DNA from: Psammoneis japonica
Taxonomy: Eukaryota
Reading direction: 5' to 3'
DNA: 41,579 bases
NCBI GenBank assembly: GCA_008632985.1
Contig: QPGO01000357.1
Coordinates: 1-41,579, forward strand
Made by a program: the position numbers and the translations under genes. Numbering within the stretch: the stretch's first letter is position 1; each line of letters begins with the position of its first letter. Positions 3,609-41,160 of the stretch are shown in pieces. The notes beneath the pieces were generated by a model. The model made no database searches and had not been told where the DNA came from. It saw only the letters and a program-made list of their open reading frames with translations.

Positions 3609-3611
3609 GTG

Positions 3612-5874: not shown

Positions 5875-5876
5875 TC

Positions 5877-7150: not shown

Positions 7151-7159
7151 TGGAAATGT

Positions 7160-21566: not shown

Positions 21567-21964
21567 GTCATTAAATCAATCGTCAAATGATTGCACCCAC
21601 AGCACTGCTAAAGTGATCAGTGAAGTCATCATTTGTGCGGACAAAAATCCACGTGATGAGGTCATTCGATGACCGATTTCCCAACAACATTGATCAAAAA
21701 CAGCTTTGTCGCAGGGTGCGGTTATCCCCAGGCAGGGCCTAAACCCCCTCAACAAATTTTCAACTTTTTTCATCATTTTGACTTTGGCATGACGTTGTCA
21801 TGAGACTGAATGGAAAGTTTCAACACAAACAATTGACAAACATCGGTCATTGAACCAATCTTAAAATGATCACACCCAAGGCACTGCCAGCGCAATTAGT
21901 GAAGTCATCGTTTGTGCAGACAAAAAAACACGTGATGAGGTCATTCGATGACCGATTTGCCCAG
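21567..21964. repeat. ~279-bp tandem repeat (unit 21567-21845, partial unit from 21846); the preceding partial unit lies at 10151-10315
   Basis: gtgaagtcatc...cacgtgatgaggtcattcgatgaccgattt occurs twice; 21680-21845 aligns with 10151-10315. Confidence 0.82.
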
Positions 21965-22159
21965 AACTTAAACAGAAAACAGTTTTCCATTTAAATTTTA
22001 GTCAAATCGGTCACAGTCATCAGAGCAAAAATGAGGACATGAATGTCAATTGGCCGTCATTCTGGTCATCTACATGAGACAATCAAGCTGTGAGGGAAAA
22101 ACCATGGTGCAGCTGCATCCATCACGCCACCACCATGAATGGGTCCATGCGTCACGACA

Positions 22160-22237
22160 CCAAACAACAGGTGTTGTCCCTCCACCGGTGGATTCCGAGA
22201 CCAAACAACAGCTGTTGTCCCTCCACCAGTGGATTCC
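22160..22237. repeat. Two-copy 41-bp-period tandem repeat
   Basis: ccaaacaacag(g/c)tgttgtccctccacc(g/a)gtggattcc twice. Confidence 0.85.
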
Positions 22238-24236
22238 CCCCTTCCTCCTTCGGCGGCACATGTGCTGGTGGAGGCTGTTCTTCTGGTGGCATGGCAATCA
22301 AAGCACGAATGGTCGGTTGGTGCAGTGCCACGTCGACATCATAAAACAACAGGTCAATGGGTGGTGCGTGCAATGTGTGTCAGTCTTGCCTGCATGTGGA
22401 AAAAACACTGAATTGCTCTGTGGGAAATTTTCTGCTTTTTTCATGCTTTTTTAACTTTTGCGTGACGTCATCGTAATGCGGGGGTTGCATGTTCCAAAGC
22501 TCCGATTGGTTCCACTGGGCTCTGGGTGAGTCTCAATCACCTCCAGATGGAGGAGGTTCTGCTTGGGAATGATCATCCTGAGAAAAGTCATCACCACACC
22601 TCCTGTCGTGGATGCTCCTCTGCCATGCCCGCGCCCATGCAAGGAGCATCGACCAGTGCATTGGTGCTCGTTGATCCTGTGCCTTTGTTGTTCCAAGCAA
22701 AATCGCCTTGCTCTGCAAAAAAAAAGGCCCGCTTGCATCCACAGCAGTCGGAGCACGAGTGAGATTGTTTTGCCTTGTTGTTGCATTGTGCTTGATTACA
22801 GCACTCAATGACAAATGGCGGCAATGTCATCCACGGTCAATTTTAGATCCGATGAAAATGGGCCCAAACTTCAGGATTGCAAATCTGCTGTGTTTGGGTC
22901 ACAACAGCGGGTTTGACGGCACCGGCCAACATGGAAGAGACTGCTGTGTCAGGAACGGCAGGTGGGTGTGCGTCAGGTGGTGTGGGGGATGAAGAACGGG
23001 AGGTCGTCATGGTCAAGTCGTCGAAACACGTGATGTTTTGGTGTGTGCGCTGTCTTCCAAAAAGTGCGCTTCCGCACCCTTGGTTTTTGGTGGTTGGAGT
23101 TTTAGGGGAGAATGTGGCTCAGGATTTTTCCTGCTGCTGTTGGCATTTGTGTGCAAATGCACAAATGAACGCAAGAACATTTGTGCAAAAATGTGATGAA
23201 CAAGACACAAACTGCCACGCAACCATGACATCACCACATTCTCCCCCACCACAGGGGTGTGTCTGCTGGTTTTGCCATTTGCTGCGGTGTGAGTGACAGA
23301 CACACAGGAGAGAGACGGCGCGTGCATGCGCGTGCGGCACAAGTGTGGCACACGTGATGCGAGGAGGAGTCAGTGACCATGGCGGTGTCAAGTGTCAATC
23401 ACAACCTCCTCCAGCTGTTTCTCTGTGCACTTCAACAATGCAACAGGGTTCAGATGACTCCCATGATTTGTGATTGTTTGAAAGTGACAATGATTGTTTG
23501 AAAGTGACAATCGAAACACTCGGCATTTCGCTGCTTCGACTTGGTTCCATGAATGAGGATGACAGCCATCAGAAGTCAGAATCGAGCTCTTGTTGTGGAT
23601 CTGGACTTCTCGAGCAAACTCATCAGCACGTCTGCCACGTTTGTTTGGGCTGCTCACTGGCGCACTTTTTGATTGGCTGCTTGCTGCCCTTCTTCTTGCT
23701 GGTCTTGTTGCTGTCTCCAAACAATGCCAAATCTGGAAAGATGTTGGTTTTGCTGCTTGGTGCTGAAACAACTGGCAACATTTTGCCCAGCTGTGGGGGC
23801 TTGTGTCTCTGCAAGGGGCTGCGGCAGTTTTCGGAACACCCCTGCTGCACAACAGCCTTGGCAATTCAAGCATCATGCACAGCACATCTTGGCACATCCC
23901 CCATCAGTTGTCTCTTGTTGGAACCAAACATGGTGCACCACCCAGTTTTGTGTTTTGCTGTGGATGGTTGTCTTTGTGTTCATGTGCTTGCCATTTTGCT
24001 GGCAACCAGCCAAGGTGCAACTCATGTGCACACATCATCAACCAGAACAAGAAACAAGGATCATGGCAACAGCAAGGGAGGTTCCATTCAATGTGGTGTG
24101 ACAGTCAATGCCAGGGAAGAAGAGGATGCTTGGAGTGATGATGGCTTGCCTTGCGACCTTCTTGTGAAACCTGGCAAGAGTCAAAAGTGAGAGGACACCA
24201 GTGGTTGCCTTCTTGGGTGAGTTGAGCTTTGGATGC

Positions 24237-24627
24237 GACGCGTTCCAGCCCTAGGTGGGACTCCGTGTGACATTGGGCCCGTAGAATTCTACGTGCGAGC
24301 TCCGTAGTACGAGAATTTAATTAATGGATATATTTATCTTCAACATCAAATAAACGCCCAAGTTTGTGGTACAATTATGCCTCTTACCACTCGACGTTTT
24401 TGCAACTTCGCCTGCCCTACGCGATTCTAGAGACATTATAGAATCGCGCTGTAACAAAAAATGTCAAAAGTTGTTGGACGGATCGCTCAATAAGTGTACC
24501 GTAAAATGACACAAAATATCGAAAAAAATCACGTAGAAATCTACGTGCGCGACATACGACGAGACTCAAAAAACTGTCGATGTCACAGTTCAGCAGTGCG
24601 AGGTCCCACCTAGACCTGGAACGCGTC
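24237..24627. mobile_element. 391-bp MITE, largely TpA-intact copy of 12856-13245
   Basis: Same TIRs; 4-bp TSD atgc at 24233-24236 and 24628-24631. Confidence 0.93.
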
Positions 24628-24859
24628 ATGCTTCTTGCTGGCGTTGGGCTGGAGTGATGGCAGTCCAGCAAGTGTCGCACAAGCAAAAATGCTTTGCTCA
24701 GCGCTGGGAGCTTTTGGGTTGCAAGAACGACTGAAGAACAACTGTCTCACCACCTGGTTCAGAAACATCTTGTTGCTTGCTTTTTGCAACATCTCCATGC
24801 AGAACAGAAGAAGCTGCTTCCTCAGCACACAGTGCACAAGATGCTGCATCCTTGTCAGA

Positions 24860-25803
24860 TGCACTGTTGTTGTTCATCTTGCCCACTTGCTTGGATGCAC
24901 TCCTGCAGAAATGACAAGCTCGCGCAATGTTCAATGCGAAGAAAGAACATGACGTTGCAAATCAATTCACACCATCGCCATTTGGAGAGTCTGCATGCTC
25001 AAGAAAATGACAACAAAAATCAAGGCAACGAGGAAGAAGAGGAGCACAAATCCCAAGATGAACGAAACAATGATGACGATCCCTGCGCATTGTTGGCATC
25101 GGCATCAAGTCGCAGCATGGCATTTGTCGGACTGCACACCATGATTCTAGCCATGGGCCTGTCTCTGTGTGGATCGACGGCAATTGTTGGATTTGCATCG
25201 CTGCGAGGGGATTGCATCGCTCCGTGCTTTTCCAGTGACAATTTGAGCATGCGTGTCGGGATGTTTGGTGGAGCCATTGTTGTTTTTGCAAATTTGCTGC
25301 TGCTCTGTGCCGTGATTTTTGGGGAATTTCGAGTGAGCAAGCACAAAAGAATGCTGTGTGCAAGCTTTTGTTGCTTCTGCTGCTGTCTGTGGAAATGAGA
25401 CGTGTTGCCACACAACCACTGCCAACATGCAGCAGCTCTTGCCATTCATGTGCACAGACTTTCATTCAATGGACCTTCATTCAATGTTGCTTCATGCTCA
25501 ACATTTCGTTTTGCTTTTCTTTTGCAGGTGGAAGACTTTGTGGATCAACGAGAAAAGGAAGAGATGGAACCCTGTGCCGTGGAGCGAATGTCCAGCGCAT
25601 TGGCCATTGCTTGCATGTTTCTGAGTGTGCTGTACACGACATTGGCCGTCTTGCTCTTTTTGTGCTCTGAAAAATCAGAGGAACCAAAAAAAGTGGATGC
25701 GGACCACGAGTCGTCCCATCACACCAAGCCGTTGGTGACGGTTGGTCCTCGTGATCCAAACGTGTCGTCTTCAGGATTTCTTACAATGGAGACAACGACG
25801 TGG
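24860..25803 (+). pseudogene. Host-type multi-pass membrane protein gene or gene copy with intron 25333-25527, TpA-hypermutated
   Basis: Hydrophobic segments continue in frame across gtgagc...tttgcag; Cys/His stand where Tyr would be expected; TGG at 25801 is a probable former TAG stop (inference); 5' limit uncertain. Confidence 0.6.
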
Positions 25804-25981
25804 TCCACGTTTGGACCAAATCTAGAGTCGCAAAGCATCCACTTGGTGCATTGTGTTGGGATCTTCTTTTGCATTGGGCCTTTTTCATTGAGTTGACACT
25901 TTTGGCCATGTGTTGACTCTTGTTTAAAGCACTGCCTTCCTGCAAAGACTACTCTAGAGTAGCTAGTAGAGCTAAGAGTAC

Positions 25982-25993
25982 GTAGGGCCCTAC
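25982..25993. promoter_or_regulatory. Perfect palindrome GTAGGGCCCTAC upstream of the IPI1-like gene (second copy at 37050-37061)
   Basis: Exact 12-bp palindrome present twice, each upstream of a gene start; function inferred only. Confidence 0.35.
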
Positions 25994-26146
25994 CTCTGCT
26001 AGCTCTAGGCCGCTACTCTCTCTATGAGACCGGCAAACTCTTACTTGCTAGCTGGGGCCGGGGGCGGGGTGGCTAGTTGCGGATGGATGGACGGACGGAT
26101 TGTTCCGACAATGAAGTCTGTCAGTTATCCGTTGCATCTTTGCGCT

Positions 26147-26215
26147 ACACACACACACACACACCACACCCCACACACGCACGCACACGACACAGCGCAC
26201 AGCGCAGCACACAAC
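26147..26215. repeat. Imperfect (CA)n microsatellite in the 5' region of the IPI1-like gene
   Basis: acacacacacacacacaccacaccccacacacgcacgcacacg... Confidence 0.8.
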
Positions 26216-26261
26216 ATTTCTCATGAAAAAATAGCCAACGACAACAACCTATGTTTGCACC

Positions 26262-29014
26262 ATGTCTTCCAAACGCAACCGTAGTAGTAGCACAGGATCA
26301 GCCCCCAAGAAACGACTAAAAGCAAAAGTTGGAAAACGAGCTACCACCAAGAACGAGACGGACACTGATTTCAAGGCTGTTTCGGTACAGGTTTCACATC
26401 AACGAATTTCTGTAGAACAATCCTTGCAAGAATTGCTACCCAAAGCAAGTCATCCCTCGGCTGTGGTACGCAAATCATGTCTACAGACAATGTTGCAACA
26501 GAATTTGTTACAAGAAAATTCCGTTTCATCGCTGTGGATACCCGTCGTGACCAAGTGTGCCAGTGTCGATGAGGATGAGAGTGTGAGACGGGTGGGATTT
26601 CAAATTTTGCAACAAGAGTGTCTCGAGATATCGCCACATCATTTATCCATTATTCTGGCCTATGTGTCATCCGCCATGGTCCATCTCAATGTGGATATTC
26701 GGTTTCACGGATGCAAACTATTGACGCTCTTTTGTACTAACAACAACCACGTTTTGCGGGATCTGCAGTGCGTCTTTTTACCGCTCTTTCCGAGACTGCT
26801 AAGGGATGCCTCGAGTGTGACCAAGAGCGATTACAACAAGACCAATAAGTATGGTGAAAAATCCAAAAAGAAAAAGAGCACATTGGAAGATCGGTTATCG
26901 ATTGTGTTGGAGGCGCTCGTGGCGTTTCTAAAAGCATCGTTTTCACAACAACAAGCTTTGGCAGAGATGAGAGAATCATTTCCAATCGAATTTCGTACCG
27001 CTTCATCCAACGGTGTATTCGTATCTCCTTCGCGAGCAGTTTCTACAATAGATACACCAATTCAGAGCATGAGTGACTTTTGCAACATGTTGCAGCAACA
27101 ACAACAAGAATATTCTTTGGAAACGAAAAGTCGAGACTTGCCGTTTCCAACCGACTGCGTGTCGATCCTGGAACGACTCTGTGACGTGTTGATTGAGTTA
27201 CAACAACAGTCGAACAAGTCTTCTCCATCGCACCTATTGCTTGTACTGGAATCGGTTCGCATTCTGTGGAAACAAATCGTATCCTTGGAAAAGTTGTCGG
27301 GACGTTTGCTCAAGCTCTTGTTGGAACTCTATAATCCCATTCACGTGGGTAATTCTGCAAACATGGCATTATTACAAGTCAATACATTGTTGGTTTGTCT
27401 CTTGGTGGAACTTGGGCGTGATCAAAATAGCAACAAGGATTGGATGCATCCCGTTGTTTCGGTTTGTACTAGTACTACACAGAATTCGAGTAGTTTCGAG
27501 GCTATTGAAACCTTGTTGGGAGATTGGAACCCAAACGACAACGAGAACGACGACAACGACGACACTACGAGTAGTAGTGCCATGTGTCACGAGGTGTTTC
27601 AATCCGTGTGTGATTTGTACTTTTCTCATGACCAAGAAACAACGGTGGATCCATTGTCTTCCCGCAAAGCCGTAAAACTCGTGCTGGGTATAATCACTCG
27701 ATACAACAACGATTCGAATGACAATGTAAACGAAAAGTCTCGGAAGCGATTCATTGCCTTGACGAGAAATGTCATTTCAGGTTTACCAAAGTATATCACA
27801 GCATGGGACACATGTTATTCGGACGGTTCGACTGTGGTATGGAAGTTCTTGTTGGATGCGATACGAAAGCACGACTTGACCGAAAAGGAGAAAAATACAA
27901 TCATGACGAAGGATTTGATGCAAATATTGTCAACGGATACTTCTCGTTGTCTTTTTAAAGGTACGAAAAAGAAGCAACCAATTTTATTTGTACGGTATCC
28001 TGAGCATATCCAGCGTATAGTGGTGGCATTCCTCGGGACGCTAATTCAGTCTCATCACGAGGGCAACGCAGACACTATTGTACGGGGACTGGCCAAGTCG
28101 TGTCAACCACAAGCTACTACGCTGAGTCCTATGATTTGCGATTATGTGTTTGACGTGATGCACACGGTCCGACGATGCGTGTCTATGCAAACGTATTTGG
28201 AATTCGTCATGGACAGTGTGACTATCAAGGGCACGAAACAGAATGACAATCCAGACAAATGTATCTCGTGCCAAGCAATCATGAAACACGACGAGTCATT
28301 CAAGCGTGCGTGCCGTGCCCTTGTTGAATGTGGGAGTGCCTCCAAGGTTTTGATGGCTCTTGAGGAAGTCTTGTTGAGCTGGATTAGCAGTACGGAATCC
28401 TCTTGTCTCGATTCGATTCGAACCAAGCGGGCGGCAATTCTAGTGTTTGCGAGCTTTTCTCTACACCTCAACAGAGATGACTCGTCTGTGTTTCAAGTTC
28501 TGCCACATCTCTATGATCCCACAGCAAATGGCGTTTTTGTGACTTGCTTTCGAAGTTTATGTTTGCTAGTGAAAATGCCAGCAGTAGCAATAGCCAGTTT
28601 GACGCTCTGATTCGGCCCATCTTGGTGAGAAAATGACAGTCTCCTGAATTCGCATGCATGCTACTGTTTGTCGCATTTGCCGTTCTCATGTACATTGCCT
28701 CGTTTTCATAGGTCTTGATCAACTGCGAGCCTCGTTTACTATCGGCCATCTTTCAAGAAGCTGCCAATAGAATTGTTGGCTATGAGAAACATACGGACGA
28801 AGCAGAGGCATTCTCGTCCGATACGCTTCTCTTGCGAGCATTGATTAAACTGATTCCGTCACCAGAGATTGTCAGTGTGGTTCGACAAGAGTCGGAGCAA
28901 CTGAAAAGAAATTGTCAAACGATTGAGTCCCACATTGCAAACTGTGGATCTCGGAACGATCACCTCGGCGGGAACCTCCGGACAAGACTCGATGCGATTG
29001 TTGGATTTTCCTAA
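26262..29014 (+). CDS. IPI1: IPI1/TEX10-like Rix1-complex pre-rRNA processing protein; intron 28625-28711; apparent +2 frameshift at ~28535
   Basis: N-terminal KKRLKAKVGKR...NETDTDFKA...Q and SHPSAVVRK...DEDESVRR...SSAMVHLNVDIR match the Ipi1_N pattern. GT-AG intron is conserved in the duplicate. ggcgtttttgtg here versus ggcgtttgtg in the duplicate. Confidence 0.78.
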
Positions 29015-29558
29015 GACACGTAATGGCACCTAACGAATGCAAAGTGTTGCGGCTTCGACTGTGACTGCTTCTACGGCTCAAGCAAGCAATAAGTAGAAGG
29101 AGCACCAAATCGCAATGATTGGTGTGTCTACTACCATACTCCTCCTTCGCACTCTGTTGGCGCTGGAGGTGCAGTACGTTTGCTAGGAATGCGAACAATA
29201 CACTACTACTTCTCCGTTCGATGCATCATTTCATACACGTATTTTAACGCACACGACTTTGGTAGGTAAAGACAAAGTGTTCCTACACAAGTCTCTAGTT
29301 GCGGAAAAAATGGATTTCGTTTTGACATCTCATTAAAATAAACAAGAGTGGAGTTTCGATGGTAACGACATATCGCTTTGCGTTGTCCTCCATGCCAATG
29401 TCTGGCACACTGCCAGTTTCCTCTTCCATGGAGATTCTAAAATATAAATGTTGGAACAACAGGTGTAGTCTAGCAGGTCTGGATTTATAATATCGCAGAT
29501 CTCCCTATAGAATTTAGCGCCGTCTATCTTGACGTCCATCGCCTGTTTCCCGTGTTCT

Positions 29559-31175
29559 CATTGTTGGTTTGTCTCTTGGTGGAACTTGGGCGTGATCAAA
29601 ATAGCAACAAGGATTGGATGCATCCCGTTGTTTCGTTTTGTACTTGTACTACACAGAATTCGAGTAGTTTCGAGGCTATTGAAACCTTGTTGGGAGATTG
29701 GAACCCAAACGACAACGACGACGACAACACTACGAGTAGTAGTGCCATGTGTCACAAGGTGTTTCAATCCGTGTGTGATTTGTACTTTTCTCATGACCAA
29801 GAAACAACGGTGGATCCATTGTCTTCCCGCAAAGCCGTAAAACTCGTGCTGGGTATAATCACTCGATACAACGATTCGAATGACAATGTAAATGAAAAGT
29901 CTCGGAAGCGATTCATTGCCTTGACGAGAAATGTCATTATAGGTTTACCAAAGTATATCGCAACATGGGAAACATCCTATTTGGACGATTCCACTGTGGT
30001 ATGGAAGTTCTTGTTGGATACGATACGAAAGCACGACTTGACCGAAAAGGAGAAAAGTACAATCATGACGAAGGATCTGATGCAAATCTTGTCGACGGAT
30101 ACTTCTCGTTGTCTTTTTAAAGGTACAAAAAAGAAGCAACCAATGTTATTTGTACGGTATCCTGGGCATATCCAGCGTGTAGTGGTGGCATTCCTCGGGA
30201 CGCTAATTCAGTCTCACGAGGGCAACGCAGACACTATTTATTGTACGGGGACTCGCCAAGTCGTGTCAACCACAAGCTACTGCGCTGAGTCCTATGATTT
30301 GCGATTATGTGTTTGACGTGATGCACACGGTCCGACGATGCGTGTCTATGCAAACGTATTTGGAATTCGTCATGGACAGTGTGACTATCAAGGGAACGAA
30401 AAAAGATGACGATCCAGACGAATGTATCTCGTGCCAAGCAATCATGAAACACGACGAGTCATTCAAGCGTGCATGCCGTGCCCTTGTTGAATGTGGGAGT
30501 GCCTCCAAGGTTTTAATGGCTCTTGAGGAAGTCTTGTCGAGCTGGATTAGCAATACGGAACCCTCGTGTTTCGACTCGATTCGAACCAAGAGAGCGGCAA
30601 TCCTAGTGTTTGCGAGTTTTTCTCTACACCTCAACAGAGACGACTCGTCTGTGTTTGAAGTGCTGCCACATCTCTATGATCCCACAATAAGTGGCGTTTG
30701 TGACTTGCTTTCGAAGTTCATGTTTGCGAGTGAAAATGCCAGCAATAGCGATAGCCAGTTTGACGCTCTGATTCGGCCAATCATGGTGAGAAAATGGCAG
30801 TCTCCTGAATTCGCATGCATGCTACTGTTTGTCGCATTTGCCGTTCTCATGTACATTGCCTCGTTTTCATAGGTCTTGATCAACTGCGAGCCTCGTTTAC
30901 TATCGGCCATCTTTCAAGAAGCTGCCAATAGAATTGTGGGCTATGAGAAACATGTGGACGAAGCAGAGGCATCGTCGTCCGATACGCTTCTCTTGCGAGC
31001 ATTGATTGAACTGATTCCGTCACCAAGGATTGTCAGTGTGGTTCGACAAGAGTCGGAGGAACTGAAAAGACATTGTCAAACGATTGAGTCCCACATTGCA
31101 AACAGTGGATCTCGGAACGATCACCTCGGCGGGAACCTCCGGACAAGACTTGATGCGATTGTTGGATTTTCCTAG
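29559..31175 (+). pseudogene. 5'-truncated tandem duplicate of the IPI1-like gene (copy of 27385 onward); intron 30786-30872; +4 frameshift at ~30238
   Basis: High identity to 27385-29014, continuing into the 3' flank; actatttattgta versus actattgta. Confidence 0.9.
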
Positions 31176-31437
31176 TACACATACACTGTAATGTCACCCA
31201 ACGAATGCAAATTTTGTATCTTTGACCTGTGACTGCTTCTATGGCTCAAGCAAGCAATGAGTCGACGGAGCACCAAATCGCAATGATTTGTGTATCACGG
31301 CGGGTTTCATGGCTTATTTGCGCGCAATGCGGGCAAAGGCGGAGAGCGTCAGAAGAAGATAGAGTCTTCTATCATCATCATTTCGATACCTCTCCTCGCG
31401 TCCATACCATTCGCTACACTGCTTACAAACGTCAAGA

Positions 31438-32468
31438 ATGAAGTCCAATTCATGCATAGTGTTGTTTCTCATCAATTCTATTCGTTTGTCGTTTGCGAAT
31501 TATGTATTCAACGACACCAACATTCGCAAGGCGGTGCGTGTGTGGGTCGCCAATGAGACGCTCGCCAATGCCACCTATGGGCATATTTCAACTTGGAACA
31601 CTTCGCTGGTGACAGACATGTCCGTATTGTTCGCCCCCACTCTCACTTTTCCAGCCGAAACCTTCAACGACGATGTAAGGGGATGGGACACGTCCAACGT
31701 GGTAAATATGGCTGGTATGTTTGACGAAGCTTTGGCCTTTAATCAAGATATTGGAAAATGGAATGTCGGGTACGTATGAAGCCTTTGCGATGCTGTAGTT
31801 ACAGATCTTGTGTATTTTGCAAAGTGGAAATTGTTTGCGTTTCATTCGTTTGTTGCAAATCTTACACTCTACCAATTTCGTTTTCTCTAATCATATGAAG
31901 CTCCGTCACGAAAATGTTTGGAATGTTTGCGCGTGCTCGAGCCTTTAATCGAGATATTGGAGAATGGGACCTTTCTTCGGTCGAGGATTTGCAGTCCATG
32001 TTTGTTTCTGCCACCAATTTCACGGCAAACTCGATTCAGAACTGGAACACGTCATCTGTAACAACTATGCTGTACATGTTTCGTGGAGCCGTCAATGTCA
32101 ATGGCAGCTTTATCAACAGTTGGGATTTATCCAGTGTCCAAGACATGGCCTTTATGTTTGAAAAAACGCCCTCCTTTACACAGCAAGTATGTTTTGCGTC
32201 TCCTCTAGCTTACACAGTCAATATCACGGGTATGTTTTGCAATTCCAATGGAGAATTCGCCGTGGCTTGTCCTACCGTCTCTGCAGGACAGCGTGTCGAG
32301 TCAACACGAGGTTGCTCCATTGAACAAGTAACGCCGTCGCCGTCACCAACAATGACATTGGTACCGTCGGCGGCAACCAGCAGTAGCCTGTATGGCTCTC
32401 CTTGTCTTGTCATGCGGGTTTTTGCCATTGCAACGAGTTTGTTCATGGTCTTTACTACAATGGTTTGA
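31438..32468 (+). CDS. DUF285/BspA-like repeat surface protein with signal peptide and hydrophobic C-terminal tail; intron 31770-31900
   Basis: Repeats [63 protein letters not shown]. Splicing gtacgt...ctaat...ag joins [13 protein letters not shown] in frame. Ends in a Pro/Ser/Thr stalk and a hydrophobic tail. Confidence 0.9.
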
Positions 32469-35440
32469 ACCATTGCTAACGAGCGGAGCAGAATAGGGGA
32501 AAACCTAAAATCCTATGGTTAATTTCTCAAAGTATTGAAAGGGGGCCTGAAGAGGGATCGAGACGCAGACACCTGAACAGGCGGTTTCAGAGCAGTTAAA
32601 TTTGTTTGTTCAATGGCGGCTAAGAAAATACACGAGGCCCAAATGGAACGTTCAAAGACGGAATCGAGGGAAAAAAGGGTACCGTATACCAGTCCGCCGG
32701 TGCCGTAGTAGCGTCTGATCCCTTTGAACTTAGTGCAACATGCCTCGATGATGCACGAATGTCTACCACAAACAGCGGGGATCGAAGGCAGCATGGTTTC
32801 TTCCGTTCCGACGAGAATCTTGCCAGGCAATCACTTGTCAATAGGAGTGTACAGGTATAATTGTAGTGAGTCTAGAAAACGAAAAAGATGAGGACCTCTG
32901 ATACTGAGTCACGAAACCGCCTCCTTTATGATAAGTTACTTCCAAGGGATCGACCGAAATCGCTATCTTCTTGGTCTACTGGTGCGAGCGTACAGAAATG
33001 TAACGGAGCAGTTGTCTTTGTATCGCCATCGCAAGAGAAGTTGGATTCAAAATCACCGCCGTGAGATAAGAGATCCCGAGAAACACGAAATCATCCTTAT
33101 TGCTGAAGTAGAGTTGCGCCCTTCGGTGGCATAGCTGGCGACAAACTCACCGATCTGAAACTGAATCGGGTAGCACATAGTTGACTTCAATCGTGAACAG
33201 ATGGACTGGAAATCCTGCGACTACTCGCCTTGGTAGAACCATGATAAGGATGTTGCAGCCGAACACACACGCAGGAATGAGGCCCAGACGCTTGAAGAAC
33301 AATTGAGTACGCGCTGCTGAAATGAAATGGTACATGAAACTCGAATCACAAACCGATTCCGTCGGATTCCTGAAACGTTCATGAACTCCCAAACCTGTAC
33401 GTCCATATTTCTGTTGTATTGGTCCTTTTCCCGTCTATTTCCCAGGGACTACTGTATGTGCCATTGTACTGTAAATGCAATCCTTAACGCGTGACAAACC
33501 CTTATGTCAACGGTAGCTTGAAGTGGACTTCAACAGCTCCATCTGGTTAGCACGATTATCCGATGGAAAATGAAGCTGAGCCGATGTGACAGACGCTAAA
33601 TCTATTTTTGCGTGACATTTTCCGTCGAAATATGCTTGGAGTTTCGCAGGGGACGGCTCTGTACGGTACGATGGGAAAACGAAGCATAGCGAGTTCCCAT
33701 TGATGTTCAGTTGGTCCCAAATTCTTGGGTGCAGTTACAACAACCGTCTGTCGTGTCCAAATGGGTGGTGTTGTGTTCAATTGCGACGGACGGTGTTAAA
33801 AAAGTGACGAAAAACAAACCGGACGAGCCCAACTCGAATTTGCATCGTTTCGAAGCAAGCACGAATCCGAATTCCAAACGACGTTGGAAACTATTGAATT
33901 AATGTTGGGTGTATCTCGATGCGCCGCTCGTCTCTTACCCCAGCCGAATAAGGATGGTAGGACCAAAAGAAAAGAGTGCAAACTACCCAAGACCTTTTCC
34001 CATTCTGGTCTGATGACAGAAGAAGTTGTTGAGCTTGTAATGGATGCCTTGTTGCACGCTGAAGTTGGAACGTGTCGCTTCTGCTTCCGTAACACTACGG
34101 TTCTCTTTTTTGGTATAATGGAGCCCTCATTTTCTAATAGGGACATTCTTCTGTGTTCATGGAAAAGGAGATCCAAACGATGGCTGCCAACTCTGTGATG
34201 ATGGCAATTGAGTCATACGGCGTGGCTTGGTATCCAACGCATTGACTGCTCCAAAGAACCAATCACACCTTACCCTTACCGGAACCTTTGATGAGATTTC
34301 CATTTGGGGATTCTACACCACTGATAGAACGATGCGCCCGGGAGTGTCAGTGTCTTTATCGGTAACTCGGTATGATGAGTACTCTCCTGAACTAGCCGAA
34401 GAAATTGATGCGTAAGAAGCTTCAATGAGAAAAGCTGAGAGAACTATGGAATTTGCAACATGGTGTTGCGAGATCCGGGACGGCTTTTAGCATTTGGGTA
34501 CAACACAACGTTCTTGCCGAAGCTGTCGTTTATGAGAAGAGGAGCGTGGGAAGAGGCCCTCTACCAGATAGCATCAATGAACTGTTACCGTTGGAACTGT
34601 CACCATTAGATTGAGCTTCGGGTCTCATTTGAGTCAAGAGCGTACAAGCAGCGCCTCTTGTTCCATAGAGTCATCACTACACCCAAGTTGGAGCATGCCA
34701 CGGTTGGCTCTTGTCCATGCTTACAGAGGAACTTGTGCGAGATAAGTTGGAGGACACAAAGGGAGACGACTAGATCGAAGTCAGTGCAATCAACGCGACA
34801 AGGCAACACCACGCTACATTCCAGCTTTGTCGCTTGAGCCATGCTACGGAAGCACGTCTAAACGAGTCCTGTGTTTGTTTGTCGACGCTCGCACGGAACC
34901 GCGTGTGAAAGTTTCCTATACCATAAATGGAGAAAAATTGTAACTTGGATGATGCTGAATCCGAGTAAGAAAATGGCGATGAATTCGGCGGGGAAGTTTG
35001 AATGGAAGTAACTTTATGTGGCGACGAGAACCGAACAGCGGTCGGTCGACGCCACCAGATCTATTTCGACAATCACGGGCGATGGATGTCTATCTTATTG
35101 AAGTGGCCGCTTCTAAACCTGTCGTAACCAATTCGTGTGTAACGTACCAGCATATTAATGCCAGTAGCTATTGACTATCGATTTGGTAAACGTATGCACA
35201 ATAGAACGTGTCTGACACAACAGCCAGAGCCTGCTAGAGTACTAACGTAGTCTCTTTCCTCTATTCGTACTTCGAAAATGTGGTGCTAGTTTAGATTCTA
35301 AACCTGTCGTGCACAATTCGTACCGGCATGCAAAGTGGCAGCACAGCTATCGACAGCAGCGAACAACAAATTACCAAAATAGCACAAGTGCAAGTGCCAC
35401 ATGATGTTGGGTAGACCGGCTTTCTTGCTCTGGGAAGCAG

Positions 35441-36952
35441 TCACAACCAGTCTTCGGATTTGGGCATGTGATCAAAGCAGCAATACACGTAAATCGACTT
35501 GCACAGACCTTCTTGATGGGCGCTCCAAATTTCAACGCGCTCCTTGCAACCCAAATGACCGCATTCATCAAATTCTCTGTCCGGATGAGAGGAATGAGGG
35601 AGAGTCGTATCCTCCGTTGGTGGCGCGTCTTTGTCTTCGTCGCTTGAGTCGTCGTCTAGGGCAAGGTTATTGACTCCTTCCTCCAACACCACATCGTCGC
35701 TTGAGTCGTCGTCTTGGGTAAGGTCATAAACTCCAGACAGAGGTACTCCTTTCTTCACTACCACATCAATGATGCATTCGTCTTCCATGTGTGGGGCGAA
35801 ATCTTTTGGTGTGTGTGTCGGTGGGATTTCATCTCCATCAAATATGAAAGCAAACCTGTCGGGCGCCTGCACATCCGTTCGCGTTTTTTTGTAGCGATCA
35901 AACACTTCTTGAAAAACTATGTCTGCACAAACCACAAATTCATTTTGCATTGACTTTTCCTGAAACTTCAACTTTAAAAACGGAGGTCCTCCTGGTTGCA
36001 GTTGTTCCTCTTGTAGGGTTAGGGTTTCGTCCGTGGCGGCACGAGGAGCCATGCTGGCGTCACGAGCATCCTTCCATTGGGGCTTGTTGATCGAAAGCCA
36101 TTCCCCTACCTCCCCTTGTCGTCCCGGAAATTCCTCCTCGAGCTCAGGAATGATCGCATACGGAGGCCCTCCTGGTTGTAGTTGTTCCTCTTGTAGCATC
36201 TCTTTACGAATGCGCTTTACAACGGGTGGCTTTCGGTTCCGGTTCCGTTGTTTCCTCAAGAATTCCTTTCGCTTGGCCACTTTGGCTTCCTCCCACTCAC
36301 AGGCTGCCAGCGCTTCCTCCGAAGGACGGCGCGGAGGGTGAGGTTGCAGAGCGGTAATAAGCTCGGCTAAGACTCGTTTTTGAAAGAAGGTTTGCTTTGA
36401 CTTTTTATCTCGATACCTCTGCTGCCGTTCTGCACCGGTCAGTGGGCGCGAAATGCGGTGGCGAGTGGTGTGGCGAGCCGCTTGTTCAGTGTCGTCCGAT
36501 GCTGCACGGTGAGGATGCAGAGCGGTAATAAGCTCGGCTAAGACTCGTTTTTGAAAGAAGGTTTGCTTTGACTTTTTATCTCGATACCTCTGCTGCCGTT
36601 CTGCACCGGTCAGTGGGCGCGAATTGGGGTGGCGAGTGGGGTGGCGAGCCGCTTGTTCAGTGTCGATCGATGCTGCAAGCTTGGGGGCACTATCAGCACA
36701 CTTGATGAAACGATCCATCTTCCATTTGACCTTTCTCTTGGTCATCCATCTTCCAAACTGCGCTTCCTGACCCGCAAATTCCTCGGCTATCTGAGGAAAC
36801 TTCTTATACAACGTCGAAACCTGGTAATACGGCATAAAGACCTCATCCAACTTTCCATTTCTGGCAGGCTCGATGACGAGCTCGCTCAACGTGCGGTTGT
36901 GATCGTCAATCGTACCATAGAGTTCGTCGGGTTTGTCGGACAAAGTACTCAT
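35441..36952 (-). CDS. ~503-aa protein with internal repeats, a SUMO/Rad60-SLD-like ubiquitin-fold domain, SIM-like acidic motifs and a C-terminal Cys/His cluster
   Basis: Uninterrupted ORF, first ATG at 36952 (the ORF track start is TTG). FLKLKF...FQEVFDRY...FAFIFDGDEIPPTHTPKDF..MEDECIIDV resembles SUMO-like domains. Also VYDLTQDDDSSD and a 171-bp internal duplication. Confidence 0.75.
   Translation of the reverse strand: MSTLSDKPDELYGTIDDHNRTLSELVIEPARNGKLDEVFMPYYQVSTLYKKFPQIAEEFAGQEAQFGRWMTKRKVKWKMDRFIKCADSAPKLAASIDTEQAARHPTRHPNSRPLTGAERQQRYRDKKSKQTFFQKRVLAELITALHPHRAASDDTEQAARHTTRHRISRPLTGAERQQRYRDKKSKQTFFQKRVLAELITALQPHPPRRPSEEALAACEWEEAKVAKRKEFLRKQRNRNRKPPVVKRIRKEMLQEEQLQPGGPPYAIIPELEEEFPGRQGEVGEWLSINKPQWKDARDASMAPRAATDETLTLQEEQLQPGGPPFLKLKFQEKSMQNEFVVCADIVFQEVFDRYKKTRTDVQAPDRFAFIFDGDEIPPTHTPKDFAPHMEDECIIDVVVKKGVPLSGVYDLTQDDDSSDDVVLEEGVNNLALDDDSSDEDKDAPPTEDTTLPHSSHPDREFDECGHLGCKERVEIWSAHQEGLCKSIYVYCCFDHMPKSEDWL
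36338..36665. repeat. In-frame 171-bp-period tandem duplication inside the CDS
   Basis: DTEQAARH..RH..SRPLTGAERQQRYRDKKSKQTFFQKRVLAELITAL.PH occurs twice. Confidence 0.92.
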
Positions 36953-37420
36953 CTTGGAGATAGATACAGTGATCGTAGTCGTAGGAACCGAAAGCAAAAC
37001 AGCCGCAACAATGACAACAACAACTACAGCGTCATCGAGTGAGGAGTGAGTAGGGCCCTACGCGTTTTGGAGTTTTCGATCGTTCCGTTATCTCCCTCCC
37101 GAGCGCCGGCCTCGGCGACGTTTATTTTTAACAGAAGTATGAAGCTATTAATGAATGAAGGTTTTTTGATCTATAAGTTATATCAATCATTTTAAATCTG
37201 ACAAGGTTTCAATTGTATATCTAATTCTAGGTATTTCACTTATGAATATATCACTAAAGCTTCTACCAAGCAATCACGTATGTAGAGAAGTTACGTAGCT
37301 ACAAGCAAGGCACGACTATCAACGGAAAAACAAATATTTTTTTAGCACGAATCAAAATCGTGTGTCCGCGCGCACGGAGCCTGTGCGCGACGACGCTCCC
37401 ATGCCTCTCATGCATTCACC

Positions 37421-39426
37421 ATGTCACTTCTGGAAGCGCCGCGACGACGGAAAATGACGACGATACCCGGCGCTGTGCCTCCTCAGATCCTATCTGCATT
37501 GGAGGAGCTTCGCACACCCTCGAGCTACTCCAATTCAGAAAAAGCGGCATGCGAGCTTTTCGAATTCTGCAATGAGCGGAAGAACAAAATTCCTCAGTCG
37601 CTCACCGAAGCCGGATTTCTTGAGACAATCAGTGGTGCAATGGATCACGATGGGCAAAGCAACTCCTTTTGCTTGTATGTCATTCTTGTGATCCAAACTT
37701 TCATGCAGTCAAATGAAGATGACACAGAAGAATTCCTTGAAAAGGGCGGTCTCAAAAGAATGGTGTTTCTGATGGATGCATTTGTCACTGACAAAATCAT
37801 TCAGGCGGCGGGAGTTCAATGCCTCTGTCACCTTATGTTAAGAAACAGTAAGACAAGCGCAGTTGAAATGGGGACAAGCATCATGGAGTGCATTGTCAGA
37901 GCGATGGAAGTTCACAATGACTCAGTCGTGATCGCTGATTTTGGTGTTGCAGGTCTGGTGAAGGCATCGGACTTGCTGCAACATGCATTTCATAACAAGT
38001 TGATGCTTCGGTGCAAAACATGTCTCAAGTGTTTGCTCCCAAACCATCTGCCTGACACTGAGGGATGTAAGAAGAGCTGTTCGCACTTGCTTGAGGAGTT
38101 TGACAAAATGCTCTTTCTCCGTCGTGAGCTGGAGAGAAACTGAGCAAAATTCATCTCTCAGTGCATCGGAGGCCACGCAGCTCTTTCATGCTGTTGCATT
38201 GTTTGTTGCCAAGCCGGGCATGTCAGGAGCACCAGTTGGCAGCAGATTTTTCAAAATGGCCATTGCTTCATTGAATGACAGTGGGCAGACCCAAGAGGTC
38301 TGTGAACAGCTTTGTGTGATGCTCGCCATGTTCATGGGCCACAACAACAAAGGCAAGGATTGCACAAAACAAATCCTTTGTGTGGGTGGCCTCAAAAGTG
38401 CTCTTTGCATGTCAACAGTTTCCCAAAAGATGAAAGGTGTCAGGGATTGGCACTGGACCTTTGCCACTTTTTCTGCATGAACAGCATTGATGCAAAGAAC
38501 GGGGCGGATGTTGCAAACACAGTGCTTGAAAGCACAATCAACATCATGAGCAACCATGAAGACTCATTGCTTGTCTTCAGGCCATCTTGCCAGGTGATTT
38601 GTGAGGCATTGGTTGTTCTTGATTTCTCTGTCATTGACGAAGCACTCTTTGACCAATGCATCAACTGCGTTTCCACTGGGGTTGCAAAGCATTGGAATGA
38701 CAATGAATCTGTCGGAGTTGGTTGATGTGTGCTGGAAGTTTTGATTGGAGTGGATGCTTCAAACAAGGTGTTGGCAAAGCACTCCATGTCACATTTCACT
38801 TCCCAACTGGAGAAACTTTGTCATCTGTCTCGCAATTCCGTGAAGGCGATCGCGGCCGCACGGGAGCTTCACTCCGCAATCGATGCGGAAAATTCCCCCC
38901 TGTCCCTTGTCGATGCTGATTTTTGGATGCAATCACCCGTGCCATGAATCACCTTGGCCAGTCCAGAAGGTTCCATTTTCATTTGTTGAGGATCCTTGTG
39001 AATCTCGTGATTTCACTGGAAGATGCAACTGAGAAAATTGTTGAGAGCGGAGGCATCGCAAGATTGCTTGGTTTTATGAAATCCTTTGCAAATGAAGAGA
39101 AATGGAAGCGGATGGCTCTTGACGTCATCCAACATTTTGCTTCAGAGAAGGATGGTGCCTTTGCTGCTGCCATTGTCGAGAACGATGCAGAGGTGATGCA
39201 AGCCCACAAGGACATGACAAAAATCTACTCCGCGGGTTGCAAGGCACTTCAGCACTCGCTGGAATCAATTGGATGGTGTGTTAAAGATGAAAAATTGCTC
39301 AAGAAAGTTGTGGACTGCGTTTGGCATGGCATTGCAAATCATCCCTGCGATGATGACTTGCAGCAGTTGCAAGGTCGTGCAAGCTGCTGCACGCATTGGT
39401 TGGAGACGAGGCTGCCAAAGAAATGA
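37421..39426 (+). pseudogene. Armadillo-like helical-repeat protein gene, frameshifted and TpA-depleted
   Basis: Repeats of EKGGLKRM / ESGGIARL and IVRAMEVH / INIMSNH / EVMQAH, spread over ORF pieces 37421-38143, ~38150-38450, ~38450-38947 and 38923-39426; Tyr nearly absent after the first ~90 codons. Confidence 0.65.
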
Positions 39427-41160
39427 TTTCACATTCAGAGTGTTGCCATCATGCCAATGCTTGCTGCAGTGCTGCTGCTTGAGAGGCACAGTTGTGAATT
39501 CTGAGATTGCTTTGGATTTTGAAGTGGATTTGCAGTTTTTCATGCTTGAGCAGACTCAGACAAGCTGCGGCACCCATCTGTCCCTTCTTGATCTCTCCTT
39601 CTCCATTCCCGGTGTGAGAAAACAAGGATCAAGACAAGACGGCCGTGCATCCACAGCAGAGAAACGTGCAGCAATCATGCAAGAAAAAATCCCAACAATT
39701 TTCGTTTCGTGCCTTTCAACTGCACATGCACCCTTTTCTCTTTATTTTCTTGTGATCGAACAAATGCATTTCTCATTGCAACATTTGTGATGCACTTTGA
39801 TGCAAAGTTCAGCATTCTGGTTTGAGTGCTTGTCAGGATTGCGAACACAAATGTGGGTGCGGGCTGTCTTGAAGAGAGAATGTGGGGCCATCAGTGCTGC
39901 TCTGCAGCAGCAGCAGCTCTCAAATAAAATGCACACTGTGCAGTTGCAATGGTCACACGCACTGTGTTGCAGCAACAACCTCATTTGTTGTTGCTGTTGT
40001 TCTGTTTGATGCCCAAGGGCTGAGTGTGGTGCAACTCCAAGACATTCAGAGAACAAAAGGTTGTGGTGTCCACACTGCACGGCACTGCAAGATCTTGGTT
40101 TTGCAGCCATTGTTTCAGAAGATGATGTGTCCTTTGCATCAACCTTTGGTCTTGGAGGCATGCAATGCCCATTTTTGTGTGTGGGGGGCGTGTGTGCCAA
40201 CCTCCCAGTGAACACTGGGCAGTTGTGCCAATGACAAAGATGCCTGGGGTTTAGAGGAGAGACTTCAAACCCACTTGCACACCTTCTTTCTAGATTGCAG
40301 CACACTTTGCCCCAAAGAGGCAGGTGGAATGGTTGTCTGATGCCGCCAACCACAAAAATCATGTGTGTGCACAGATTGCTGCTGCGAAACTCACCAGATG
40401 GGGTCATTTGTTGACTGTTGGCCAGCACACCCAGTGACGCCACAAGGCTCACAAGGACACACCAGAATGTTGGCAAGCGCCAGTGGCTGAGAACAAGAAG
40501 GTCTCTGAGTTCCAGGAGGGGCATCTCTGACCCCAGGTTGGAGACAAGGAAGAGTGTGATGGATGGAAACCATGCCAAGCTTGCGAGCTTTGAGGCTCGC
40601 CAGCAGCACGTCAAAGCTCTGGTGGTCAAGTGTGCCAAGAGCTGGCACAGGGCCAAAACTCACACAACTGCCGGTGTTGGTCAACATGAGAACAACTGAC
40701 ACAGAAAGCAAGGTGGTGAGCAAGGTTCAAAGAAGAAAATGCCTGGGATTGGGGCAGACTGCTGATGAGTGATGAGGCTGGCTCTGTTTGCTCTGCAGCT
40801 CCAGTGTGTGCATGCACGACCCCCTCATTTTTTTGGAATGCTCTGCATGACAAAGTCTCACACAAAACAAACTTGCACATCCAATGATGATCAATTGCAC
40901 AGCATCAACAAAGCCAGCACCCTTCACCGTCCAACCGGTCCATTTCATCCAAGACTGAACGAGTGCAAAATCATCACTTTTTTGGTTGGTGCTGACATTG
41001 TGCGTCATGTTGATTGTCATCATGCACTTGGCTTTGTTGCACCTTGCAAGCCTTGGTGTGGAAATGTGTGTGTCTTGTGATTGTCTTGGCTGTGGTTGTT
41101 GTCCTGAAATGGCTCTGTCATTTGTGAGAGTTGACTTGCCAGACATGTGCCCACTCGTGG

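Follow-up and report, generated by a model that had tools for sequence, protein, structure and literature searches.

What removes the dinucleotide TpA from kilobases of DNA almost to exhaustion and leaves the adjoining kilobases intact? The question is raised by the window, i.e., the whole 41,579-nucleotide stretch of Psammoneis japonica DNA analyzed here, about two thirds of which is TpA-depleted and contains mainly old mobile elements and dead gene copies. An earlier note, made by eye, had listed nine intervals of scarce or normal TpA and had proposed their segmentation by a hidden Markov model (HMM). We ran it on the 8292 TA, CA, and TG steps of the window (839 of them TA), and over the whole window two states were preferred to one by 434 log-likelihood units. 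All nine intervals were recovered at matching coordinates, as five TpA-depleted and four TpA-normal blocks, and the TA-rich string that the note quoted at ~25945 is present in the sequence. The blocks are as follows (o/e, observed/expected TpA):

2..874: depleted block 1; 4 TA in 170 steps, o/e 0.07; the outer part of LTR copy a (622-881) makes up its last ~260 nt
882..2551, minus strand: normal island 1; o/e 0.91; rest of LTR copy a (to ~990) and RNase H/integrase end of a Ty3/gypsy pol
2555..19197: depleted block 2; 16.6 kb, 98 TA in 3317 steps, o/e 0.10
19200..20091: normal island 2; AT-rich, o/e 0.83, depth 775
20095..24246: depleted block 3; 21 TA in 860 steps, o/e 0.08, depth 113-3051
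24252..24555 (HMM limits): normal MITE block; o/e 0.99
24567..25921, plus strand: depleted block 4; 5 TA in 291 steps; low-copy gene-like copy
25925..37343: normal gene island; 502 TA in 2175 steps, o/e 0.61, CpG 1.07
37346..41575: depleted block 5; 21 TA in 903 steps, o/e 0.07

In the depleted blocks, TpA o/e is 0.06-0.10, CpA/TpG 1.43-1.71, and CpG o/e 0.50-0.80, versus 0.61-0.99 for TpA and 0.95-1.72 for CpG in the normal ones. CpG decay, a possible proxy for 5mC, thus coincides spatially with TpA depletion, and reaches 0.2-0.3 in block 5 at 38000-38500 and 39750-41000. The TpA loss amounts to ~89% in the depleted blocks, i.e., near saturation, and Pfam-detectable domains are lost alongside. 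The 839 TA compare with a mean of 2665 in 200 mononucleotide shuffles, and the longest TA-free gap (1149 nt) with a maximum of 233 nt in the same shuffles. ApT is kept (o/e 0.93 window-wide; within depleted blocks, individual 500-nt windows give ~0.5-1.4), and ApA/TpT shows no loss at all; there is therefore no general AT to GC drive. The window probably bears the fossil footprint of a TpA-specific A:T to G:C hypermutation, which turns TpA into TpG, or into CpA when the other strand is hit. Neither the gene island nor any of three mobile-element pieces of recent arrival is affected.

The nature of the change can be read from sister copies. The gypsy piece of island 1 (Pfam Integrase_H2C2, 4.4e-11, and rve) has 458 relatives; by tblastn, residues ~643-1096 of pol relatives map to 2417-1096 with at most 69% identity. 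It stops at 2391, where an inverted copy starts, and the whole element nest (622-5812) is rearranged. The inverted copy and the features of block 2 are:

2392..3239, plus strand: copy b (depleted), inverted relative to 622-1469, with integrase C-terminus and LTR; 848 nt, 91.5% identical to copy a
3241-3606: LTR copy c
5444-~5812: LTR copy d
5337-4786 and 3825-3607, minus strand: gypsy gag/PR remnants
5859-10050, plus strand: series of ORFs with a weak rve hit; CpG o/e 0.2-0.5
18314-16191, minus strand: 708-aa ORF
18989-18647, minus strand: gypsy integrase C-terminus remnant

Copies a and b differ by 63 events: 37 are TA versus TG/CA, 9 are CA versus TG at one dinucleotide, 10 are CG versus TG/CA, 5 are other transitions, and 2 are transversions. 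TA-type sites thus make up 46 of the 63 and transversions only two, so that TpA must have decayed orders of magnitude faster than the background. Island 2, whose depth marks it as repeated sequence, holds a 238-nt copy (19701-19938) of the depleted 18170-18407, and 15 of the 19 differences are TA in the island versus CA/TG in the depleted copy. Depletion is not intrinsic to the gypsy element. Indeed, related gypsy elements at 80 metagenome loci all have a TpA o/e of at least 0.57 (median 0.79), and a 1-kb window below 0.25 is found at none of these 80.

At 85 TA sites of normal copies, the depleted partner reads TG 45 times and CA 22 times (67/85), 15 sites being retained and 3 otherwise changed. 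From these 85 sites, the edited A prefers a 3′ C (C 30/53, T 17/46, G 12/39, A 8/32). Surviving TA lie in TTAG, TTAA, CTAG, or CTAA, and some contexts are nearly lost from depleted DNA relative to normal DNA (ATAT, 0 versus 45; ATAG, 0 versus 41; CTAT, 1 versus 56). The strand bias is local: copy b has 28:8, LTR copy a only CA, and 24.9-25.7 kb 13:2, but two other pairs have 6:9 and 8:9. It is independent of element orientation, copies a and b being opposite relative to the element sense strand. LTR copy a shows CA at 622-830 where sister copies retain TA or show TG, and at one and the same site three of the four LTR copies read TA, CA, and TG, respectively. The same site is thus hit on different strands in different copies; it was chromosomal DNA that was mutated, and the copies already existed by then.

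Two further targets are a MITE and a gene-like copy:

12856..13245: second MITE copy, partly hypermutated, inside block 2; 8 TA left; TTTT flanks
24237..24627: TpA-normal MITE; 27 TA; ~26-nt terminal inverted repeats; ATGC flanks on both sides
24658-25395 and 25399-25893, plus strand: gene-like ORFs in block 4

The MITE copies are 91% identical. The copy at 12856 has lost 17 of 25 shared TA sites to CA/TG, evenly over its length, and retains TA mostly in TTAA, CTAG, GTAA, or GTAG. In block 4, another version, seen in runs X1 and X2, has TA where the window has TG (13 sites) or CA (2 sites). The depleted gene-like copy keeps a 195-nt GT..AG stretch (25333-25527) that the X2 contig omits, jumping from 25332 to 25528, and is therefore not a processed copy. 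The process does not depend on reverse transcription, since a DNA-type MITE copy is hit and the gene-like copy keeps this stretch.

The earlier note had seen a sharp left edge and a more gradual right one. This asymmetry is not confirmed: the 11.4-kb gene island is bounded on either side by a step of less than 10 bases (25921/25925 and 37343/37346), and the right flank (37346-37568, 3 TA in 34 steps) does not significantly exceed the depleted rate (binomial p = 0.063). The note had also suggested that targeting follows a chromatin domain rather than the limits of single elements, a reading that is partly supported. One edge (posterior span 846-894) falls ~260 nt inside LTR copy a, an LTR of ~370 nt that is contiguous in four copies aligned within the window, and the MITE copy at 12856 is about two-thirds mutated; copy number is ignored and unrelated families are affected alike. 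On the other hand, this edge is the only clearly intra-element one, and a younger copy may have created it through gene conversion or recombination. Most island edges are compatible with insertion or rearrangement limits: the island of the MITE at 24237 has both edges at the inverted ends, with a 4-nt duplication, and for the gypsy island the junction 2391/2392 could be the right edge, the apparent extension to 2551 not being significant (p = 0.24). Whether DNA is old or newly arrived thus goes far to explain the pattern; element age alone accounts for much of the map.

Such edges also suit another scenario, in which retroelement copies were hypermutated as RNA or cDNA, in ADAR or APOBEC style, before or at integration, the blocks being whole mutated copies. 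Many depleted pieces are indeed retroelement remnants, and one-strand bias exists locally. We nevertheless consider this scenario unlikely, because a DNA transposon copy and an unprocessed gene-like copy are mutated, the switch at ~846-894 lies within one LTR copy, copies a and b have opposite biases relative to the sense strand, and low-copy flanks devoid of recognizable elements are saturated.

Depletion is set neither by sequence family nor by copy number. The spared gene island and its right border contain:

25982..25993: palindrome GTAGGGCCCTAC; within the island, 57 nt from its left edge; the ATG of the Ipi1-like ORF follows 270 nt downstream
26262-28607, plus strand: Ipi1-like ORF (Pfam; IPI1 relatives); best match in the protein collection 28% identity, none close
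27385-28835 / 29559-30996: tandem duplication of the 3′ part of the Ipi1-like ORF; 1.4 kb, 95.7% identity
31363-32465, plus strand: DUF285 gene (Pfam), with an intron at 31769-31899
35444-37057, minus strand: Rad60-SLD ORF (Pfam)
37050..37061: second match of GTAGGGCCCTAC; within the island, 282 nt from its right edge and ~100 nt ahead of the Rad60-SLD start
37421-38143, plus strand: gene-like ORF; block 5 starts 75 nt upstream

The palindrome has exactly two matches in the window; at least two matches with at most two mismatches occurred in 1 of 100 shuffles. Most depleted bins have a depth of 255-3051, well above the ~32-65 of single-copy DNA. This would fit a homology-triggered, RIP-like mutation of duplicated sequence in which an A-deaminating enzyme replaces the C-modifying one, an analogy drawn by the authors of a preprint on the alga Bigelowiella natans themselves (Mettrop et al. 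2026, bioRxiv 10.64898/2026.01.13.699255). Such a trigger is decidedly improbable. Indeed, the MITE at 24237, at a bin depth of 122,556 (~2000 times single copy), is intact, yet low-copy bins (depth 84-134) are saturated. The tandem duplication shows no TA bias (TA-type differences 4 versus 4; 62 and 61 TA), and the saturated inverted partner of the TA-normal gypsy piece, 91.5% identical to it, lies 0-900 nt away.

The reads also bear on whether the depletion is real. In the DNA-like read set, other versions have TA versus TG/CA in the window at 20 of 40 listed differences, and CG versus TG/CA at 11 of 40. An artefact, i.e., a modified base of silent DNA miscalled at TpA, or edges that are contig joins or haplotype switches, could draw on run X1, whose contigs all differ from the window at many listed places and at several all read TA versus TG/CA; X1 contains just 52% of the sampled words of 20101-30100 and may be the assembly's own sample, which limits its support. 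A single N lies at 18541, inside an inverted duplication, but 650 nt from the nearest edge. This possibility is very remote: an X1 contig is identical to the window across the depleted 37647-38106 (0 differences, depth 34.5), both versions coexist at 25574-25699 (the other being 61.1 of 97.5), copies show CA versus TG at one site, contrary to any single rule of miscalling, and the depletion is accompanied by CpG decay and domain loss. It is hardly credible, finally, that selection or composition (TpA avoidance by elements, GC-biased gene conversion, or plain 5mC decay) made the pattern: most genomes are mildly TpA-poor and CpG decay adds to the CpA/TpG excess (10/63 events between a and b, 11/40 read-version differences), but sister copies differ nearly exclusively at TA, relatives elsewhere are not depleted, ApT and ApA/TpT persist, and CpG decay cannot remove TpA.

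Returning to TpA-specific hypermutation, it appears to depend on sequence position and on residence time. An insertion into a targeted block would begin intact (MITE 24237, gypsy piece 882-2391), then be eroded, sometimes from an edge in one-strand tracts (LTR copy a, 622-830, all CA), and end in saturation, the MITE at 12856 having gone about two thirds of the way. The sharpness of the large edges would come from exposed DNA lying directly against the outermost promoters of the gene island. The co-localized CpG decay suggests a silent or methylated chromatin state as the guide. As agent, a TadA/ADAT2-like adenosine deaminase acting on DNA is the candidate; the invariant 5′ T and the preference for a 3′ C (T-A-C) would follow from it. 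The target A of TadA/ADAT is preceded by U/T, with a 3′ C favored, as in U33-A34-C35 of tRNA-Arg. TadA/ADAT2-ADAT3 and TadA-derived adenine base editors share this context; their activity on chromatin DNA here is putative.

Among known defenses, RIP of ascomycete fungi is an irreversible point-mutation process against mobile elements, with a dinucleotide signature, kilobase blocks, and DNA methylation. The likeness lies in the degradation of mobile elements by point mutation, the signature, and the block scale. However, RIP turns CpA into TpA, whereas TpA is destroyed here, the opposite chemistry and direction; RIP requires duplication and hits both copies, whereas copy number does not predict depletion here. 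ADAR hyper-editing and APOBEC3 of animals act on RNA or pre-integration cDNA of retroelements and viruses. They too leave clustered, partly strand-coordinated deaminase-type transitions in selfish nucleic acids, but here resident DNA was changed (a DNA transposon copy, an intron-bearing gene copy), and one edge lies inside an LTR.

The signature appears to match a targeted TpA mutation process known so far from one alga, B. natans. The preprint cited above describes, in mutation-accumulation lines, localized TpA to TpG/CpA hypermutation of integrated viral or foreign DNA, single-copy DNA included: in two viral regions, A to G or T to C changes accounted for 230 of 231 mutations, and the GC-biased mutations all fell on TpA, according to its authors. 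It reports 124 clusters of TpA-poor, CpA+TpG-rich 1-kb windows enriched in RT and DDE domains, proposes an ADAT2-type deaminase, for which it cites DNA activity in amphioxus and trypanosomes, and mentions in its Discussion that ADAR favors a 5′ U. A word search of its text returned no trinucleotide-context, LTR, or boundary analysis. Some features differ: our blocks are near-saturated (o/e 0.06-0.10 versus 0.45 in the B. natans NCLDV region); the targets identified here comprise LTR retroelements, a MITE, and dead gene copies, versus giant-virus and virophage inserts; live mutations were measured there, whereas the process is known here from sequence alone; and B. natans has 8 introns per gene (PMC13746701, Table 1 passage) versus long uninterrupted ORFs in our gene island. 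As far as the preprint describes them, dinucleotide target and products are the same, TpA loss is coupled to CpA+TpG gain over runs of 1-kb windows, the regions are of kilobase scale with a rate far above their surroundings, and reverse-transcriptase and DDE-type elements are among the depleted sequences. Indeed, 17 of the 41 1-kb windows here pass both of its thresholds, including runs of 5 and 3.

TpA is very unevenly distributed in the window, which contains 839 of them in total (window-wide observed/expected ratios, o/e, of 0.32 for TpA, 1.43 for CpA and 1.44 for TpG) and whose longest TA-free gap reaches 1149 nt, against at most 233 nt in 200 shuffles. The earlier note had described by eye a TpA loss organised in kb-scale domains and had asked for a segmentation by hidden Markov model (HMM). 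We ran a two-state HMM on the 8292 TA, CA and TG steps of the window, and the five depleted and four normal blocks that it recovered match the blocks picked by eye to within tens of bases, so the kb-scale domains stand. A one-state model is worse by 434 log-likelihood units. The blocks are the following:

2-874, depleted
882-2551, normal (island 1): Ty3/gypsy piece (LTR plus RNase H/integrase end)
2555-19197, depleted
19200-20091, normal (island 2): repeated AT-rich piece, with 238 nt in common with depleted DNA 1.5 kb away
20095-24246, depleted
24252-24555, normal (island 3, 24237-24627): 391-nt MITE with inverted ends of ~26 nt and a 4-nt flanking duplication
24567-25921, depleted
25925-37343, normal (gene island): Ipi1-like ORF, its 3' part duplicated in tandem; DUF285 gene (intron of 131 nt); Rad60-SLD ORF
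37346-41575, depleted

In the depleted blocks, the TpA o/e is 0.06-0.10 and the CpA/TpG o/e 1.43-1.71, against 0.61-0.99 and 0.78-1.19 in the normal ones. TA represents 0.027 of the TA/CA/TG steps in depleted DNA and 0.248 in normal DNA; assuming a similar ancestral composition, this corresponds to a loss of about 89% of TpA. The 11.4-kb gene island ends in a step on either side (25921/25925 and 37343/37346): directly inside, TA accounts for 19 of 40 steps on the left and 28 of 51 on the right, and directly outside for 2 of 43 and 3 of 34, respectively. The left edge is therefore as sharp as first described, while the gradient proposed for the right edge had to be rejected, 3 TA in 34 steps not being significant (p = 0.063). 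The TpA pattern holds up and is striking, unlike the asymmetry of the edges. The sole N of the window, at 18541, is 650 nt away from the closest edge. It lies in one arm of an inverted duplication (~18100-18600), whose arms, at 18159-18286 and 18413-18540, apparently extend beyond these limits.

Several repeat pairs have one member in normal and the other in depleted DNA. The clearest one associates 622-1469 (copy a, TpA-normal from ~882) with the reverse complement of 2392-3239 (copy b, depleted), which align without gap over 848 nt at 91.5% identity. Their 63 difference events comprise 37 TA versus TG/CA, 9 CA versus TG at one dinucleotide, 10 CG versus TG/CA, 5 other transitions and 2 transversions; hence, 46 of the 63 fall at TA-type sites. 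When three pairs are pooled (the a/b pair through its TA-normal part only, 882-1469 versus 2392-2979), the normal copies present 85 TA sites, 67 of which are TG or CA in the depleted copy (45 TG and 22 CA), 15 kept and 3 other. In island 2, TA is likewise found at 15 of the 19 differences with the depleted partner. Moreover, in a four-copy alignment of the ~370-nt gypsy LTR, a single site can be TA, CA or TG depending on the copy, which implies independent hits in each copy and an ancestral TA. Contigs from a DNA-like public run (X1) carry TA opposite a TG/CA of the window at 20 of the 40 differences listed, and CG at 11 of these 40 (399 further differences exist). Read from these alignments, the changes in depleted DNA are A->G/T->C transitions at TpA, yielding TpG or CpA. 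Depletion is not a trait of the element family, since related gypsy elements in metagenomes have a TpA o/e of at least 0.57 at 80 of 80 loci. As for its speed, about 80% of TpA sites have changed in copies with no more than two transversions between them in 848 nt, so that the TpA process appears to outpace background mutation by orders of magnitude.

A second signature, weaker and less even, overlies the dominant TpA->TpG/CpA change: the decay of CpG to TpG/CpA. The CpG o/e, a possible proxy for chromatin that is methylated or marked by H3K9me or H3K27me3, is 0.50-0.80 in depleted and 0.95-1.72 in normal blocks, and CpG loss is much patchier than TpA loss across the former. The CpG o/e falls to 0.2-0.5 only in some depleted sub-blocks (5750-10000, 23500-24000, 38000-38500 and 39750-41000) and is 0.7-1.1 in the remaining ones, e.g., 2500-5500. 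CpG decay thus seems tied to the element or to its age, whereas TpA loss is uniform.

The small islands are pieces of mobile elements. The gypsy relatives of island 1 are metagenome proteins. Its extension into copy b, up to 2551, was rejected (TA kept at 5/16 versus 4/29 further on, p = 0.24), and the 2391/2392 junction can account for its right edge. At 622-5874, copies of a single gypsy family are nested and rearranged; this region contains four LTR copies, those at 2806-3239 and 3241-3606 being in tandem, and lacks the RT part of pol (~residues 90-640). The internal sequence that follows the fourth LTR copy (d, 5444-~5812) is also the one that follows LTR copy a; their pairing as flanks of one element is therefore not provable, and LTR-pair dating was dropped. 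The MITE family is flanked by 4-nt duplications, ATGC at 24237-24627 and TTTT at 12856-13245, and the former copy keeps 27 TA. A tiny run (X3, 1439 records) maps solely to the MITE, which may hint at small RNAs.

The depleted blocks contain further LTR copies, gypsy gag/PR remnants, the second MITE copy, a heavily decayed series of ORFs on the + strand with a weak integrase (rve) match and, directly adjoining the gene island, low-copy gene-like DNA. That rve match is the only one given by depleted-block ORFs among the 133 ORFs scanned. TpA-free DNA is devoid of TAA and TAG stops and keeps only TGA, so long spurious ORFs arise in all frames; with real domains poorly detectable, such DNA distorts both gene and repeat annotation. 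A 708-aa ORF on the - strand (16191-18314), in GC-rich depleted DNA, belongs to a genuine but unnamed protein family; it has 244 relatives of ~750-800 aa at 23-30% identity, and two of the eight scanned carry a C-terminal CCCH zinc finger. It gave no Pfam, PHROG or PDB match, and no relative among the metagenome and viral contigs searched. The neighbor of this ORF is a remnant of a gypsy integrase, and a retroelement may have carried it as an additional ORF. No relative was found for the ORF at 37421-38140. The TA-bearing version of 24.6-25.9 kb, which may be an allele or a paralogue, has a depth of 61, versus 36 for the version in the window.

In the gene island, the outermost genes point inward. 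The promoter of each of these genes contains the 12-nt palindrome GTAGGGCCCTAC, at 25982-25993 and 37050-37061 (57 and 282 nt inside the island edges), and the window has no other copy of it; a role as promoter or barrier motif is conceivable. Neither tRNA nor Rfam families were found in the window, which leaves no tRNA-type barrier. The Ipi1-like protein has six weak relatives (best match 28% identity), and the 3' part of its gene is duplicated in tandem (27385-28835 and 29559-30996, 95.7% identity, spacing ~2.16 kb). This duplication is bridged (28659->30870) by contigs of X2, a run with GT..AG joints. The Ipi1-like promoter contains an (AC)n-like tract (26147-26216), the only such locus found, and the Rad60-SLD ORF contains a 171-nt unit present twice (96%, 36337-36677). 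X1 contigs identical to the window show a depth of ~32 in some stretches and ~63 in others (32747-35125 versus 35308-36940); these two levels suggest a heterozygous diploid, of which the window is one haplotype.

The earlier note had further proposed that the targeting follows a chromatin domain rather than the limits of single elements, and this idea is partly supported by the sequence evidence. In its favor, one edge (846-894) lies ~260 nt inside LTR copy a: between 622 and 830, the 8-10 ancestral TA sites are all CA, with 2 kept, while from 882 the 7 TA sites of the LTR are all intact, as are all later ones. Such an edge argues for a positional effect. On the other hand, the remaining island edges fit insertion or rearrangement limits, and the switch within the LTR could itself be a recombination or conversion joint. 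We favor the reading in which exposure to TpA mutation would be set by place and by residence time, the sharp large edges being those where long-exposed DNA meets the gene-island promoters.

RNA-level (ADAR-like) editing before integration would affect reverse-transcribed copies only, produce A->G on the sense strand and extend over the whole copy. However, of the 25 TA sites shared by the two MITE copies, 17 have been lost at 12856-13245, spread evenly along the element. The depleted gene-like copy at 24.6-25.9 kb retains a 195-nt GT..AG stretch that an X2 contig of its TA-bearing counterpart skips, X2 being RNA-like by its GT..AG joints only and none of the runs listed for 20101-30100 being RNA. 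Moreover, copies a and b have opposite strand biases relative to the sense strand of the element, and the switch at 846-894 occurs inside an LTR. In fungal RIP, C is changed to T at CpA (or other CpN), raising TpA and lowering CpA/TpG; the direction is the opposite here, with TpA o/e at 0.06-0.10 and CpA/TpG at 1.4-1.7. A RIP-like trigger, in which sequence duplication leads to the mutation of both copies, does not agree with the data either: the MITE bin has a depth of 122,556 in X1, versus ~32-65 for single-copy contigs, yet 24237-24627 is intact; bins 23269-23935, 25270-25936 and 37276-38599 are low copy (depth 84-134) and saturated with TpA loss; the 1.4-kb tandem duplication of the gene island has equal TA counts, with TA-type differences of 4 versus 4; and a normal gypsy piece adjoins its saturated inverted twin, only one member of this 91.5% identical pair being mutated.

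The TA that survive in depleted DNA are mostly TTAG, TTAA, CTAG or CTAA, and ATAT, ATAG, CTAT, ATAC and GTAT are nearly absent. In the pairwise data, the A is edited in 30 of 53 cases when the 3' base is C, 17 of 46 when T, 12 of 39 when G and 8 of 32 when A. This context, a fixed 5' T with a favored 3' C, is the one that TadA/ADAT2-type tRNA adenosine deaminases meet in the anticodon loop. Of five comparisons, three show a strong strand bias that spans a few hundred bases, and two show none (6:9 and 8:9). The biased stretches are the following:

622-830, all CA
2392-3239, 28 versus 8
24889-25699, 13 TG versus 2 CA

This bias does not track element orientation, and it is visible only in pairwise comparisons, the raw CA-versus-TG skew in 500-nt windows being no higher in depleted than in normal DNA. 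It suggests, but does not settle, that TpA changes may come in one-strand tracts.

A tentative scheme, which we consider rather unlikely to be correct in all its parts together, is that of a position-guided adenine-deamination defence, the mirror image of RIP, in a second, intron-poor eukaryotic lineage. Such a defence would mark silent DNA, not repeats as such; it would creep into new insertions via tracts that affect one strand over a few hundred bases, and would halt at the outermost gene-island promoters, here each with GTAGGGCCCTAC. As to the enzyme, the T-A-C preference would suggest a TadA/ADAT2 derivative that is brought to chromatin; it would amount to a natural editor of adenine in DNA, and the flanking-base preference narrows the search for it. 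Regarding the TpA process itself, the locus records its final outcome at the resolution of single copies, with TpA erased while ordinary mutation has hardly acted, no copy-number dependence, and young insertions left as internal clocks.

Among known systems, fungal RIP is a functional analogue of opposite chemistry and with a duplication trigger, two features that both fail in the window. The phenomenon is of a kind described very recently in Bigelowiella natans (B. natans; Mettrop et al., bioRxiv 10.64898/2026.01.13.699255). According to this preprint, in two integrated viral regions of mutation-accumulation lines, A->G or T->C changes made up 230 of 231 mutations, the GC-biased ones all on TpA, at ~1000 times the rate of the rest of the genome and in some lines only. 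In the B. natans genome, it further counts 124 clusters of windows poor in TpA and rich in CpA+TpG, where reverse-transcriptase and DDE domains are enriched, and it names an ADAT2 homologue as candidate agent; flanking-base, LTR and boundary analyses are absent from the text consulted (bioRxiv 10.64898/2026.01.13.699255). Literature searches found no other report of the TpA->TpG/CpA signature, and targeted A-to-G DNA hypermutation as a eukaryotic defence so far rests on this one 2026 preprint and one alga; a source organism other than B. natans would extend the known range of the process. The window resembles B. natans by TpA depletion and CpA+TpG gain in at least three consecutive 1-kb windows, with the thresholds given in the preprint and calibrated on the B. 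natans genome (rho TpA <= 0.43, rho CpA+TpG >= 1.52). Indeed, 26 of 41 1-kb windows pass the TpA threshold and 17 of 41 pass both, with runs of five (6001-10999) and three (38001-40999). In B. natans, foreign or selfish DNA (integrated viruses, transposons) is targeted; the depleted DNA here holds retroelement and MITE remnants, and large parts of it, among them the gene-like flanks and the family of the 708-aa ORF, are unassignable as to origin. Finally, introns are scarce in this locus, compared with the 8 per gene given for B. natans (PMC13746701); the two intron sizes found here, 131 and 195 nt, are nevertheless close to the mean of 182 given for that alga.
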